Shown: piece by piece, positions 10-56,167 of the stretch
Position numbering within the stretch: the first letter of the stretch is position 1
Layout of the letters: each line of letters opens with the position of its first letter
From: Eledone cirrhosa
Taxonomy: Eukaryota
Assembly (NCBI GenBank): GCA_964016885.1
Contig: OZ024762.1
Span: 19,406,001 to 19,470,000 of the forward strand
Length of the DNA stretch: 64,000 bases
Direction: 5' to 3'
Position numbers and translations under genes: made by a program
Notes under the pieces: model-generated
Database searches by the model: none
What the model was told of the DNA's origin: nothing
What the model saw: only the letters and a program-made list of their open reading frames with translations

Positions 10-62
10 GAGCTTCTACAGGACTAGTACTGTTTCATTCAGATGAAATCTTCAGGAAGCTC
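10..62 (-). ncRNA. Type I hammerhead ribozyme (family A)
   Basis: Reverse complement reads gagcttc-CTGAAGA-tttcatctgaat-GAAA-cag-tactagtc-ctg-TA-gaagctc. It has a 7-bp stem I, an intact core, stem III Acag/ctgT and a GUA cleavage triplet. Confidence 0.85.
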
Positions 63-180
63 ATATATATATATATATATAATGTGTGTATATATATGTG
101 TGTATATGTGTATATATATATGTGTATATATATATATATATATATATATATATATATATATACATGTATATATATACATG
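63..180. repeat. (TA)n/(TG)n microsatellite
   Basis: Direct dinucleotide repeats. Confidence 0.95.
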
Positions 181-485
181 TTCAACTGGCAGTTAAACAT
201 TCACACATACCACACATATATACATACAGCAATAGATATATTACATTCATGAATGTTGCACTTGTTGATTTAACAAAACATGTAAACGTTTGTTGATGCT
301 TGTTCTAAGGTATCTATTTCAACTATTTCAACATACAATACTGTAGTTCTTTTCACTTTATTTGTTTTTTGGTGTGTATTTGAATCATGGGTCATGGGGT
401 GGATTTGCTCAATTTATATTCTTGAGTGAAAAAAAAAAGGCATACCTCTTGATGCAATTGTTCAAATTACTCTAAACCCTTCAGC

Positions 486-1628
486 ATTTACATTACTCTA
501 TATATACTATTATATTTTCATGGTAAAGGCTTTACCTCACATAAATATCTCACATAACATTCTCATTACTCTATATATACTATTATATTTTCATGGTAAA
601 GGCTTTACCTCACATAAATATCTCACATAACATTCACATTACTCTATATATACTATTGTATTTTCATGGTAAAGGCTTTACCTCACATAAATATCTCACA
701 TAACATTCAGATTACTCTATATATACTATTATATTTTCATGGTAAAGGCTTTACCTCACATAAATATCTCACATAACATTCACATTACTCTATATATACT
801 ATTATATTTTCATGGTAAAGGCTTTACCTCACATAAATATCTCACATAACATTCACATTACTCTATATATACTATTATATTTTCATGGTAAAGGCTTTAC
901 CTCACATAAATATCTCACATAACATTCACATTACTCTATATATACTATTATATTTTCATGGTAAAGGCTTTACCTCACATAAATATCTCACATAACATTC
1001 ACATTACTCTATATATACTATTATATTTTCATGGTAAAGGCTTTACCTCACATAAATATCTCACATAACATTCACATTACTCTATATATACTATTATATT
1101 TTCATGGTAAAGGCTTTACCTCACATAAATATCTCACATAACATTCACATTACTCTATATATACTATTATATTTTCATGGTAAAGGCTTTACCTCACATA
1201 AATATCTCACATAACATTCACATTACTCGATATATACTATTATATTTTCATGGTAAAGGCTTTACCTCACATAAATATCTCACATAACATTCACATTACT
1301 CTATATATACTATTATATTTTCATGGTAAAGGCTTTACCTCACATAAATATCTCACATAACATTCACATTACTCGATATATACTATTATATTTTCATGGT
1401 AAAGGCTTTACCTCACATAAATATCTCACACAACATTCACATTACTCTATATATACTATTATATTTTCATGGTAAAGGCTTTACCTCACATAAATATCTC
1501 GCATAACATTCACATTACTCTATATATACTATTATATTTTCATGGTAAAGGCTTTACCTCACATAAATATCTCACATAACATTCACATTACTCTATATAT
1601 ACTATTATATATTCATGGTAAAGGCTTT
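486..1628. repeat. 61-bp tandem array (about 18 units) derived from a MITE segment
   Basis: Unit cattcacattactctatatatactattatattttcatggtaaaggctttacctcacataaatatctcacataa repeated head to tail. Confidence 0.95.
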
Positions 1629-1962
1629 CATTCATTTCATTTTACGTCCACTTTTCCCTGCTTGCAAGGGTGGGACGGGAACTGATTCTGGCTTGATTTC
1701 TACAGCTAGATGCCCTTCCTAACACCAACCTCATTTACAGTGAGTGCTGGGTGCTTTTTTTGCCGTGGCACCACCACGACCACTTTGCAGTGGAATGATA
1801 TGGACCCCAGTCCCTATCATCTCATTTCTACAGCTGAGTAAACTGGAGCAATGTGAAATAAAGTGTCTTGCTCAAGGAAACAACACATCACCCGGTCTGA
1901 GAATTGAACTCACAACCTTTCGATTGCAAGGCCAATGCTCTAACCACTAAGCCATGTGCCTC
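1629..1962 (-). mobile_element. tRNA-derived SINE family 1 (CORE-like central domain, RTE-type tail)
   Basis: Minus strand has an A box TGGCTTAGTGG, a B box GAGTTCAATTC, a central ccttgagcaagacacttt motif and a tail ending ggacgtaaaatgaaatgaatg. Near-identical copies lie at 4251, 48347 and 53338. Confidence 0.88.
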
Positions 1963-2765
1963 ACATAATATCTCACATAACATTCACATTACTCTATATA
2001 TACTATTATATTTTCATGGTAAAGGCTTTACCTCACATAATATCTCACATAATATTCACATTACTCTATATATACTATTATATTTTCATGGTAAAGGCTT
2101 TACCTCACATAATATCTCACATAATATTCACATTACTCTATATATACTATTATATTTTCATGGTAAAGGCTTTATCTCACATAATATCTCACATAACATT
2201 CACATTACTCTATATATACTATTATATTTTCATGGTAAAGGCTTTACCTCACATAATATTCACATTACTCTATATATACTATTATATTTTCATGGTAAAG
2301 GCTTTACCTCACATAATATCTCACATAATATTCACATTACTCTATATATACTATTATATTTTCATGGTAATGGCTTTACCTCACATAATATCTCACATAA
2401 CATTCACATTACTCTATATATACTATTATATTTTCATGGTAAAGGCTTTACCTTACATAATACCTCACATAACATTTACATTACTCTATATATACTATTA
2501 TATTTTCATGGTAAAGGCTTTACCTCACATAATATCTCACATAACATTCACATTACTCTATATATACTATTATATTTTCATGGTAAAGGCTTTACCTCAC
2601 TTAAATATCTCACATAACATTCACATTACTCTATATATACTATTATATTTTCACAGTAAAGGCTTTACCTCACATAATATCTCACATAACATTCACATTA
2701 CTCTATATATACTATTGTATTTTCATGGTAAAGGCTTTACCTCACATAATATCTCACATAATATC
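1963..2765. repeat. About 60-bp tandem array (same MITE-derived unit, 1-bp shorter variant)
   Basis: The unit has cacataatatctc instead of cacataaatatctc. Confidence 0.95.
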
Positions 2766-2812
2766 GAATCTATGTGATGTTGGTATTATTTATTTTGAGA
2801 ACAATACCTTAA

Positions 2813-3033
2813 CCCTTTAGCATTCAAACCGGCCACAACCGGCTAGAATTCCCTCACCTCTTTCTGTTCAAACTGGCCGTAACTAGCCACTCATACTGAT
2901 GTTAAGGTCTTGTTTTCAAAGTTAATAATAATATCATCAAAATCTCATAGATTCGATGTGAATAATTATGTAAGGTAAAGCCTTTACTGTGAAAATACAA
3001 TAGTAGATATAGAGTAATGTGAATGTTAAAGGG
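2813..3033 (+). mobile_element. piggyBac-type MITE (about 220 bp)
   Basis: TTAA-CCCTTTAGCATT ... AATGTTAAAGGG-TTAA gives terminal inverted repeats with TTAA duplication. Paralogues at 6499, 10549, 18570 and 21685. Confidence 0.85.
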
Positions 3034-53621: not shown

Positions 53622-53889
53622 ATATATATATATATATATATTTAGATATATATATTTAGATATATATATTTAGATATATATATTTAGATATATATATTAT
53701 AGAGTAAAATGACATGAGGTCGGAGAGGTTAAAGTCTGTTCCCGCACCACCAACAGGATTCAACATCAAAGATGGAGGAGTTATGTAACGTGCAGTGCTT
53801 TTCTACTATTACATAATGGTTAACATTGTGGAATGACCAATTCTACCCAGTGGTGAACCACTAAACTTGAATGAATATATATATATATA

Positions 53890-54112
53890 TAAATAGGAAA
53901 AGAGTCAGGACCCCAACGGCAGAGCTCCGGCCATTTCGACAGCTAGATCCAAACTCTACTACCCTAAGTATTGAGTACTCTGGTGTGTTATGGTCCACCT
54001 GGTATCTTACCACACTTTCTTTGTTTTTTATATATATATAATGAAGGAGGTGTGGTAAGGAACCAGATGGACCATAACGCACCAGAGTACTCAATACTTA
54101 GGGTAGTAGAGT
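53890..54112. mobile_element. Rearranged fold-back of family H (half-hammerhead element)
   Basis: Inverted arms 53953-54021/54044-54112; homologous to 51310-51445 and 57765-57970. Confidence 0.65.
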
Positions 54113-54294
54113 GGGGAATTGGAAAATGTTTAACCAGAGCTAGTCATAACAGGTCTGGTATGGAAAGGGCTTAAAAGAAACCCTTTACCTTTCTGGGCAC
54201 TCTAGGTACATTATGTTGCCAACAGAGTAATTTCCCCTTAATACATAATGCAGTGTCAAGGGAAACAATTCATGAAAAAATTCAGCGTGCTAAA

Positions 54295-54566
54295 GATTAA
54301 TAACACCAGAGCTAGTTATAGCAGGTCTGGTATGGAAAGAGCTTAAAAGAAACCCCTTTAATAAAACCAGAAGGAGTTATGGTAGGTCTGGTATGAAAAG
54401 GGACTGAAAAGGAACCCTTTAATAAAACCAGAACCAGTTATGGCAAGTCTGGTATGGAAAGGGACTGAAAAGGAACCTTTTAATAAAACCAGAGCCAGTT
54501 ATGGCAGGTCTGGTATGGAAAGGGCTTAGAAGAAACCCTTTAATAAAACCAGAGGTAGTTATGGCT
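54295..54566. repeat. About 61-bp tandem repeat (4-5 units)
   Basis: Recurring taataaaaccagagccagttatggcaggtctggtatggaaagggc. Confidence 0.85.
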
Positions 54567-56030
54567 GAGTAAGTATCAAAAGGCTTAAGGTTATTGCAAT
54601 GAAATTTCACTATTGCTGCGTCTAATCAATTTACTTATATTGTGCAGCGATAAATGAGTGTCTCGTTAATTTGGCAGCTGTAATTAGTTGTAAGCGAAAG
54701 ATCACATTCATTTCTATTAAGCTGTCCCTTCATTTGCCACCTGTCCCTTTCTCGCATTTCATAAATTATATTTAATAATTATACTAGAATCACTCTCTTT
54801 CACTCATATGTGTGTGTATATATATATATATATATATGTATATATGTTTGTTGGTATAAATATGTATATATGTATGTATATATGTATATATATATATATA
54901 TGTATGTTTGTTGGTATAAAAATATTTATATATATATATGTTTGTTGGTATAAATATGTGTATATGTATATATATATATGGATGCATATGTATATATATA
55001 TGGATGTATATATGTATATATATATATATATGTATATGTATGTAGATGTATATATGTATATGTATGTAGATGTATATGTATATATATATGTATATATGTA
55101 TATATATATATGTATGTATATGTATGTATGTATATATGTATATATATATGTATGTATATATGTATATATATATGTATGTATATATGTATATATATGTATA
55201 TATATATGTATATATATGTATATATATATGTATATATATGTATATATATATGTATGTATATATATATATATATGTATATGTATATGTATGTATATATATA
55301 TGTATGTATGTATATATATATATATATATTACTATTATTATTTCTCACTCATATTTCTATTTAATTTAGATGTCAGATATAATTTTAAAGTAGGTTTTAG
55401 GTTTCACTGATGATGATGATGGCGATGGTGATAATGGCGGTGATAGTGATTATGTTAGTGTTGATGGTGATGATTGTGCCGATGGTGTGGTTGATGAAGA
55501 TTAGACGGTCATATATTTGGGCCAATAAAGACATTGAGTTCTCTATAGATATATTAGAACTAGGACTGTTTCATCCAAAAGAAATTGTCAGGAAATACCT
55601 TTTTGAATGAAACAGTTCTAGTCCAGTAGAAGCCATTTCTATATTAAATATGATATTTACACTCTACTAATGTATTGAGTACCTTACTGTGGTTACTCCC
55701 AATTGAACCCGTGGTGCACACACACACACACACACACACTACCACACCACACCACACCACACCACACCACACCACACCACACCACACCACACCACACCAC
55801 ACCACACCACCTCCACACCACACCACACCACACACCTCCACACCACACCACACCACACCACACCCCCACCCCCCACACCTCCACACACGCCACCACCGCT
55901 TTATATATATATATATATTTATAGTGGTAGAACACTGGAAGGTAGTAGTAGAGCACTTTGTAGTGGTAGAGCACTCAGTCCATGGGACGAGTTAGGTAGA
56001 AGTGGTTACACAACAGTTAGTTCACCATAC

Positions 56031-56068
56031 CGAGAAGAATTGTTTCACCTTAGTGGATCCTCAGCTCG
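56031..56068 (-). ncRNA. Minimal type I hammerhead (family I)
   Basis: Reverse complement cgag-CTGAGGA-tccactaaggt-GAAA-caattc-TT-ctcg; stem III mismatch. Confidence 0.65.
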
Positions 56069-56129
56069 CAATGGACATGGTTATATGGAACAGGAAGGAC
56101 AACCCTGTTCCGTATAACCATGTCCATTA

Positions 56130-56167
56130 CGAGCTGAAGATCCGCTAAGGTGAAACAATTGTTCTTG
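56130..56167 (+). ncRNA. Minimal type I hammerhead (family I)
   Basis: cgag-CTGAAGA-tccgctaaggt-GAAA-caattg-TT-cttg; palindromic stem III, GUU site. Confidence 0.75.

Follow-up and report, generated by a model that had tools for sequence, protein, structure and literature searches.

Hammerhead motifs with a stem II-closing U·U mismatch in Eledone cirrhosa mobile elements

In a 64,000-nt stretch of Eledone cirrhosa DNA (the window), seven families of hammerhead motifs carry U at both 10.1 and 11.1, the positions that close stem II. We consider it likely that these are type I hammerheads at the 3′ ends of Penelope-like elements (PLEs; demonstrably in families C and I, presumably in A, B, D and G) and in a retrozyme-like repeat (F), that a family-fixed U·U replaces G10.1-C11.1 in them, and that they self-cleave, mostly as dimers, cutting and probably circularising the element RNA. 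The mismatch was already published in 2011, and it is mainly its scale here that is new.

Motifs in the window and their detection

All eight sites listed in the preliminary description, which fall into seven families of type I hammerhead motifs, have U at both 10.1 and 11.1 with a paired helix beyond, just as had been claimed, and stem I, A15.1-U16.1 and a cleavage triplet are likewise present at each (Table 1); the consensus G10.1-C11.1, itself not absolute, occurs at none of them. Stem I can form over 4-7 bp, stem II over 2-4 bp past U·U, and stem III as a hairpin or a self-duplex. The CUGANGA core had been assigned to every family, and the type I order of CUGANGA, GAAA and NUH is indeed found in A, C, D, F, G and I, but the core of family B is CAGAAGA; matches to CUGAAGA in family B proved to be the opposite strand of inverted junctions. 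The next pair beyond U·U in the seven families is U-A, C-G, U-A, C-G, A-U, A-U and C-G, and never G-C. An alternative register, in which the first U would be the single extra nucleotide already known and have a normal pair beneath it, was rejected on pair counts, as it leaves no pairs in A, C, D and I, one in G and two in F, versus two to four in the U·U register.

Table 1. Hammerhead motifs in the window, with the bases at 10.1 and 11.1
Feature	Position	Strand	Details
Family A hammerhead	10..62	-	U10.1 48 · U11.1 37; 7-bp stem I; stem III 4 bp + 8-nt loop
Family A copy 10..62, predicted cleavage after GUA	A17 at 17	-	adjoins (AT)n
Family A hammerhead	35157..35203	+	U·U 35168/35179; inverted copy of own 3′ tail in place of 5′ side (PLE-type inverted junction)
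Family B hammerhead motif	20494..20544	+	core CAGAAGA (U4A) 20499-20505; U·U 20506/20518; stem III 5 bp + 7-nt loop; triplet CUU
Family C hammerhead	24317..24355	+	U·U 24329/24340; loop-less palindromic stem III; triplet CUU
Family C second copy, inverted partner	23847..23885	-	U·U; one stem I mismatch
Family D hammerhead	26176..26269	-	U·U 26255/26195; 61-nt stem II region; palindromic stem III; GUA
Family F hammerhead	35842..35884	+	U·U 35855/35868; stem I 6 bp, stem II 4 bp; palindromic stem III lacking a loop; GUA with A17 at 35878; in a retrozyme-like repeat
Family G hammerhead	52995..53052	+	U·U 53006/53036; interrupted stem II; palindromic stem III; AUA
Family I hammerhead	56130..56167	+	U·U 56141/56151; 2-bp stem II; palindromic stem III; GUU
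Family I second copy, inverted partner	56031..56068	-	U·U; one stem III change
Family J hammerhead, comparison motif	56276..56331	+	canonical G10.1-C11.1
Family H hammerhead, comparison motif	57428..57492	+	A-U
Family H copy	59622		G·U
Family H copy	60069		A·C
Family H copy	59936	-	A·C
Family H copy	60327	-	A-U
Family H copy	35429	-	A-U

Scanning the window with the full descriptor returned 15 hammerhead motifs, eight of them with U·U, while 40 order-2 Markov shuffles of the window gave a mean of 0.25 motifs per shuffle and no U·U motif at all. The other seven matches, which are absent from the preliminary description, comprise one G-C, three A-U, two A·C and one G·U; relatives of family H terminate Hydra-type PLEs. 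At the gathering threshold, Rfam detected no match anywhere in the window: against HH9 the family F copy scored 20.4 bits, short of the cut-off of 52 (E 0.004, for a stretch of 121 bases), and the family A copy at 10-62 had no match to the Rfam hammerhead families. The 150 matches listed by an E-value scan of the window were set aside as microsatellite-driven and miRNA-type. The prediction that descriptors requiring a 10.1-11.1 pair would miss these motifs is thus borne out for Rfam; on the other side, a published PLE descriptor permits both an extra N10 and an extra N11, and rows with U·U were tabulated in 2021.

Genome-wide copies and host elements

Across the whole genome (3 Gb), the U…U pattern gave 122,012 matches versus 13,079 in the control and the G…C pattern 52,409 versus 9,561, a background-subtracted ratio of about 2.5 : 1 in which the G…C pattern overlooks extra-nucleotide G-C forms. 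U·U hammerhead motifs amount to more than 100,000 genome copies on mobile elements, in at least nine families. For family F, about 95% of some 27,000 genome matches were U·U (25,561; 11.1 differed in 1,202 further matches, and 10.1 alone in 190), and the non-U forms at 11.1 included 74 C·A and no G-C among the 100 matches listed out of 1,202. The variants listed within the family F motif in 5,053 contigs (run X1) fell on N7, in loop II and on a single pair of stem I, which changes from A-U to G·U or U·G; none occurred at 10.1, and 0.2% at 11.1. Family A showed 27,075 U·U matches versus 478 with another base at 11.1. These counts support U·U as the state of the family and not the product of decay, as had been proposed, and the contrary pattern named beforehand, a G-C family consensus with U·U confined to the window copies, did not occur.

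In other copies, family C forms the 3′ end of a Neptune-type PLE, its motif lying 354-416 nt after the GIY-YIG domain in seven of 14 copies examined, and family I likewise ends a Hydra-clade PLE, a Hydra-type GIY-YIG preceding the motif by about 200 nt in five of 12. The latter assignment was made by motifs: family I has a reverse transcriptase (RT) with C-terminal GIY-YIG, RWK-like, DKT, CxCX5C and CxxC/CxH motifs, a 3′ hammerhead and a (TA)n target, and one frame (L170) reads RWR, DKT, CSCPKPEAC, CGL-x and CPH, with the hammerhead motif about 200 nt after the stop and then (TA)n. Families C and M (the latter found elsewhere in the genome) combine an RT with DKG, a CX2-5CxxC linker, a C-terminal GIY-YIG and a hammerhead near the 3′ end; frame L153 has DKG and CNDNRCGTC, and the Neptune-type loci were picked up by Pfam GIY-YIG. 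From these motifs, we take both families to be Neptune rather than Nematis.

For families A, B, D, F and G, searches by tblastn and home-made endonuclease profiles found no directly linked endonuclease in 37, 15, 5, 42 and 4 copies, respectively; the few endonuclease matches near such copies lay 1.0-2.0 kb upstream. At the two loci that were read, which gave apparent links for family B (L094) and family A (L167), the endonuclease belongs to another element across a (TA)n run, and the hammerhead copy is an insertion of its own in that run. The inverted 5′ junctions and (TA)n flanks of A, B, D and G would fit PLE insertions, and we take these four as putative PLE 3′ ends. Family F occurs in head-to-tail arrays among the 100 matches listed, with permuted copies longer than one unit, and has the layout of non-LTR retrozymes, namely short non-coding tandem units with a type I hammerhead in each. 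The z-scores obtained for circular folding, -6 for F and -7 for B, were discarded because the units hold self-complementary microsatellites and the family B "unit" is no true tandem.

Precedents and origin of the U·U state

The U·U variant, which the preliminary description could not confirm as catalogued, is not new: it was named in 2011 and described in axolotl in 2020. Perreault et al. (2011, PMC3088659) drew a natural U10.1-U11.1 hammerhead among active core variants, with a phage PaP3 example in Fig. S6, and U-U is the best-tolerated mispair according to Ruffner 1990 as cited there. Theirs is the same mismatch at the stem II base, listed as a rare variation; in the present genome no other single state is as common, and the motifs that carry it are of type I and mostly of the dimer type. 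Our literature search on U10.1/U11.1 hammerheads returned that paper alone, and one on G10.1/C11.1 mismatch nothing. In axolotl, HHR_Amex2 is a type I hammerhead of about 60,000 copies in tandem repeats with a U U mismatch at the helix II base (Cervera & De la Peña 2020, PMC7229834); family F shares its layout, although HHR_Amex2 is one salamander family with 350-nt units and here there are at least nine families, with a spacing of about 420-500 nt in the family F arrays.

Among PLEs, 14 of the 25 Hydra-clade families in File S2 of Craig et al. (2021, PMC8557442) have U·U; the table labels them "canonical" with no comment there, and its sole octopus Hydra family is not U·U (for the Hydra and D. 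willistoni rows, see Cervera & De la Peña 2014, Figs S3 and S5A, PMC4209133). The hammerheads in that compilation resemble ours in 3′ position, short near-palindromic stem III and (TA)n targets, and the family I protein has Hydra-clade motifs; unlike that set, U·U is found here also on Neptune-type proteins, once with a U3-A8 core. A literature search on cephalopod retrotransposon hammerhead ribozymes returned Craig et al. alone. The PLE minimal consensus (PMC4209133) is likewise type I, located at PLE termini, with a palindromic stem III and a dimer mode, but includes one extra nucleotide, conserves G10.1-C11.1 and inserts 2 nt in stem III, whereas the U·U families have no G-C and 4-15 nt in stem III. 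Two families of this genome (L068 and L160) do fit that consensus, with the extra nucleotide and G-C.

The seven contexts had been called unrelated, and flanks show no homology between window families (a single A-B match is a family B tail adjoining A), with C and I on two distant PLE clades; however, U·U can be inherited, because it is the majority state in published Hydra-clade hammerheads, and A, B, D, F and G lack a linked protein. One possibility, which we lean against, is that U·U is an extra rung, with one nucleotide added after A9 and another before G12, so that the true closing pair of stem II lies one step out. The sister Neptune-type families M and N4 (100/99 support in the protein tree) fit this well, as both have the stem GCAU/AUGC, set on the core directly by G-C in 11 of 11 N4 copies and with one extra U per side in M (U·U in 15 of 17 copies), and the 2014 PLE descriptor names the two extra positions. 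The next pair out is never G-C in the window families, however, and therefore the rung reading suits the origin of M, while the other families contain no hidden G10.1-C11.1. The extra rung and the substituted pair may be structurally the same thing.

It is also conceivable, though we would not expect it, that U·U has a single origin in an ancestral PLE hammerhead, or that 3′-end swapping spread it, the recurrence then reflecting shared ancestry and not repeated selection. The Hydra-clade majority favors this, as do the stem II of family C, which opens like Hydra ones despite its Neptune-type protein, and the five window families without a protein for placement. Against it, the grouping of the Neptune-type U·U families C and M was rejected (p-AU 2e-11; 8 proteins, 364 columns), and M retains the U3-A8 core and CCGG stem III of its G-C relatives N1, N4 and N6, so its hammerhead was not imported from a C3-G8 family (N6 itself is G-C in two of three copies, the other being read as A·C). 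The Hydra-type tree (7 proteins) contains one U·U family and leaves its forks mostly open, only pairing I with an A·G family. Seven independent origins are more than these data show; one separate gain of U·U, in family M, is supported, resembling an extra rung under an intact G-C, and the state was probably in part inherited (Hydra clade) and in part regained (M). Positions 10.1·11.1 are permissive in this class: U·U is commonest, and sister families or subfamilies have C·A, A·C, A·G, G·A, A-U or G-C. Family M versus N4, and the U·U, C·A and G·A forms of family F, provide naturally matched sisters for testing the role of this position.

Fold, activity and core variants

Self-cleavage of the window copies is likely. 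The U·U would stack, wobble-like, beneath the sheared G12·A9 pair. Stem III is exactly palindromic in five of the seven families, in C and F without any loop, and therefore two copies would swap strands to form it; a monomer fold may be possible for A and B. The element RNA would be cut by the hammerhead and then probably circularised. Predicted minimum-energy folds of D, F and G did not reproduce the active fold. The triplets of B, C and I are NUU and family B lacks U4, and both an NUU triplet and loss of U4 reduce hammerhead activity. PLE minimal hammerheads are weak, working as dimers, and cleave poorly in vitro. Axolotl HHR_Amex2, with the same mismatch, is self-cleaving (22% in 1 h as a monomer and much better as a dimer), and its circular RNAs were shown (PMC7229834). 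The mismatch itself, published and compatible with cleavage, thus changes nothing; the value of the present set is its scale and context.

The core changes are possibly new. Family B has a fixed U4A core in 21,842 copies, and the Neptune-type N4 a fixed A13C together with U3-A8; a literature search on hammerhead ribozyme U4A found no report. It is a doubtful proposal that 10.1·11.1 is a freely gained and exchanged rung preferring mismatches (U·U, C·A, A·C, A·G, G·A), and that the high-copy families B (U4A with U·U, about 22,000 copies) and N4 carry active, unreported core variants. The genome would in that case amount to a mutational scan of the hammerhead core made by nature, its non-canonical copies numbering well over 100,000. 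Should the U4A core of B or the A13C core of N4 cleave, natural hammerheads have a less strict core than the catalogues record.

We think it unlikely that the motifs are attenuated or vestigial, with U·U, and in B also U4A, persisting because the element does well with weak cleavage or with none, and carried along on a few very successful masters. The poor in vitro cleavage of PLE minimal hammerheads would agree with this, as would Naiad PLEs, which spread without canonical hammerheads, the fixed core changes in B and N4, and A9G in the family D copies at 58112/58180; conservation among copies alone is no proof of activity, because family fixation mirrors the master copy. On the other hand, subfamily variation in F spares the core and preserves stem I pairing, a diverged F relative, which has a G·A mismatch, retains its three stems although their letters differ, and activity is known for the U·U hammerheads from phage PaP3 and from axolotl. 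That the matches reflect chance, or decay within AT-rich repeats, is refuted: although the loose genome-wide pattern has some 13,000 background matches and (GAT)n artefacts account for 3 of 73 descriptor matches in a sample, that pattern stands nine-fold above control, family-pattern searches gave no control match, the window shuffles gave no U·U motif, and 654 kb reversed and complemented yielded no match.

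U·U hammerhead motifs in the window

The U·U opposition at 10.1·11.1, the foot of stem II, is real, fixed within families and very abundant in this genome, yet it is a known variant on known carriers. Within the 3.0-Gb assembly, the window has a G+C content of 37%, abundant microsatellites, and no long coding frames besides one LINE reverse-transcriptase fragment. Using a descriptor that demands stem I, stem II, A15.1-U16.1 and an NUH site, we found 15 motifs there, while 40 shuffled windows gave a mean of 0.25 motifs and none with U·U. The eight U·U motifs are exactly the sites cited in the preliminary description, whose reading of a U right after the 7-nt core and another right before GAAA was borne out at all eight (type I motifs, with 2-4 pairs enclosed by the U·U); the CUGANGA core it gave throughout was not, as family B reads CAGAAGA instead. 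The remaining seven comprised one G-C, three A-U, two A·C and one G·U. If the first U is read as the single extra nucleotide already on record, no pair is restored, and this register was rejected. Rfam gave no match in the window at the gathering threshold.

Two motifs with a very long stem II, at window 46426 (-; about 50 nt) and in sampled locus L092 (about 630 nt past the stop at 7839; >100 nt), would escape length-limited descriptors. An inverted pair of family D (window 58112, -, and 58180, +) has the core CUGAGGG (A9G) in both arms.

Features with a protein frame or a variant hammerhead core
Feature	Location	Strand	Remarks
LINE-type fragment, 420-aa frame with RVT_1 and PHD finger	window 47102-48364	-	unrelated to the hammerhead finding
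Family B core CAGAAGA (U4A)	window 20499-20505	+	with U·U and CUU site
Hammerhead motif at the end of family N4 (Neptune-type)	L167:4298-4326	+	U3-A8 core, GCAA for GAAA (A13C)

Fixation within families and genome-wide share

The earlier proposal that U·U does not reflect decay holds as a statement about family state. For family F, 25,561 exact genome-wide matches had U·U; the base at 11.1 differed in 1,202 others, and in 190 only that at 10.1 did (no matches in any control), and thus about 95% are U·U. For family A, where the count covered changes at 11.1, 27,075 matches had U·U and 478 a different base there. Flank-anchored copies in the window and L061-L169, loci sampled from the same genome, were U·U in 11/11 (A), 7/7 (B), 11/11 (C), 3/3 (D), 4/4 (F), 5/5 (G), 10/10 (I) and 15/17 (M, a Neptune-type family elsewhere in the genome). 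Among the first 100 listed of the 1,202 family F matches, 74 were C·A, an amplified double change defining a C10.1·A11.1 subfamily, and none was G-C, nor was a G-C form of this family seen among any matches listed. A diverged relative at L077:4068-4138 has G·A and fully exchanged stems.

When contigs from four public runs were aligned to family F, motif variants were located at N7, in loop II and at one stem I pair kept as G·U or U·G, with no variant row at 10.1 and, in the deepest run, a frequency of 0.2% at 11.1. Such a pattern is what one would expect from selection on active masters, and it is no proof of activity.

Genome-wide, the U·U pattern CTGANGAT-N5-25-TGAAA was matched 122,012 times (13,079 in the reversed control) and the G-C pattern CTGANGAG-N5-25-CGAAA 52,409 times (9,561 in the control). 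The ratio of 2.5:1 after subtraction of the controls is only rough because both miss part of their class: the former leaves out families B and M, and the latter passes over G-C motifs whose G is preceded by an additional A, C or U. The descriptor was also run on 654 kb made up of the window, four 10-kb stretches next to it and 55 scattered ones. It matched 73 times, three of these being (GAT)n artefacts, and not once in the same sequence reversed and complemented. The other 70 were U·U (22), G-C with or without an extra base (10), A-U (10), A·G (6), A·C (5), C·A (4) and other (13). Position 10.1·11.1 is permissive in this genome, and U·U is its commonest state. Two satellite-like arrays, each with one hammerhead motif per unit and one strand switch, have a 310-nt period with A-like U·U (G000:C1:5388712-5392664) and a 466-nt period with G-C (G000:C1:5738332-5752438).

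Carrier elements and independence of origin

Candidates for GIY-YIG numbered 10,595 in the genome, and first-look candidates for the Hydra-type endonuclease of Penelope-like elements (PLEs) 55,847, which suggests a very large expansion of the Hydra clade. Family C lies 354-416 nt downstream of a Neptune-type RT-linker-GIY-YIG frame in 7/14 copies examined, and family I about 200 nt downstream of a frame with Hydra-clade motifs in 5/12. Family F forms head-to-tail arrays (spacing about 420-500 nt) with no linked frame in 42 copies examined, in both respects like non-LTR retrozymes. Families A, B, D and G have inverted junctions, (TA)n flanks in most, and no linked protein frame among copies examined. 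Two families at L068 and L160, downstream of other PLE types, have the textbook extra base and G-C.

The seven window families were described as independent and unrelated, and we found no flank homology between them. A protein tree (eight C-terminal halves, one long outgroup, no reference proteins) rejected grouping the U·U families C and M (p-AU 2e-11) and placed M sister to the G-C family N4 (support 100/99). The Neptune-type subclade N1, N4, N6 and M (L120-L169) has in common a U3-A8 covariant core and a CCGG stem III, and CUGANGA-only searches overlook all of it. N1, N4 and N6 are G-C, and tree and motifs together support one separate U·U gain, in M; its stem is that of N4 plus one U per side, apparently an added rung. 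Independence in general is weakened because most Hydra-clade hammerheads in the literature are U·U, five of the window families lack a placement and tree rows are few.

Proposed mechanism, precedents and core variants

For U·U motifs we directly observed sequence, fold potential, family fixation and location at element ends. Stem III is exactly palindromic in C, D, F, G and I, and transcripts across tandem or more-than-unit copies may let two motifs pair these palindromes and cleave after N17, with the U·U presumably forming a narrow wobble stacked below the sheared G·A pairs. Cleavage would leave ends that might be joined into a circle and used by the reverse transcriptase of the element, a role proposed for PLE hammerheads (Cervera & De la Peña 2014, PMC4209133); circular RNA has been demonstrated for retrozymes (Cervera & De la Peña 2020, PMC7229834).

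Perreault et al. 2011 (PMC3088659) already name the U10.1-U11.1 mismatch as a rare natural variation and draw it among active core variants, with an example from phage PaP3; U-U is cited there as the mispair tolerated best. Cervera & De la Peña 2014 give a PLE consensus of extra base plus G-C and a descriptor permitting extra N10 and N11, and the machine-extracted text of their figures reads as U·U for the rows of Hydra and D. willistoni, as well as for the Dwi_HHR2 drawing (440 copies). Their 2020 paper describes axolotl Amex2 (~60,000 copies) with U U at the helix II base and cleavage of 22% as monomer, better as dimer. By our count, 14/25 Hydra-clade families in File S2 of Craig 2021 (PMC8557442) have U·U.

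Newt satellite 2 has an snRNA-type promoter. An octamer, ATGCAAAT, at window 35760-35767 (+), 88 nt 5' of the family F core, might be a similar promoter, offered as a lead only.

Novelty is likeliest for the fixed U4A of family B and the fixed A13C of N4. Our literature search, whose reach did not extend to the most relevant paper, found no report of a natural U4A hammerhead. U4A is fixed across family B (21,842 exact matches, against 276 in which position 4 differs), and A13C is fixed in 11/11 N4 copies examined (the L167 copy and 10 more).
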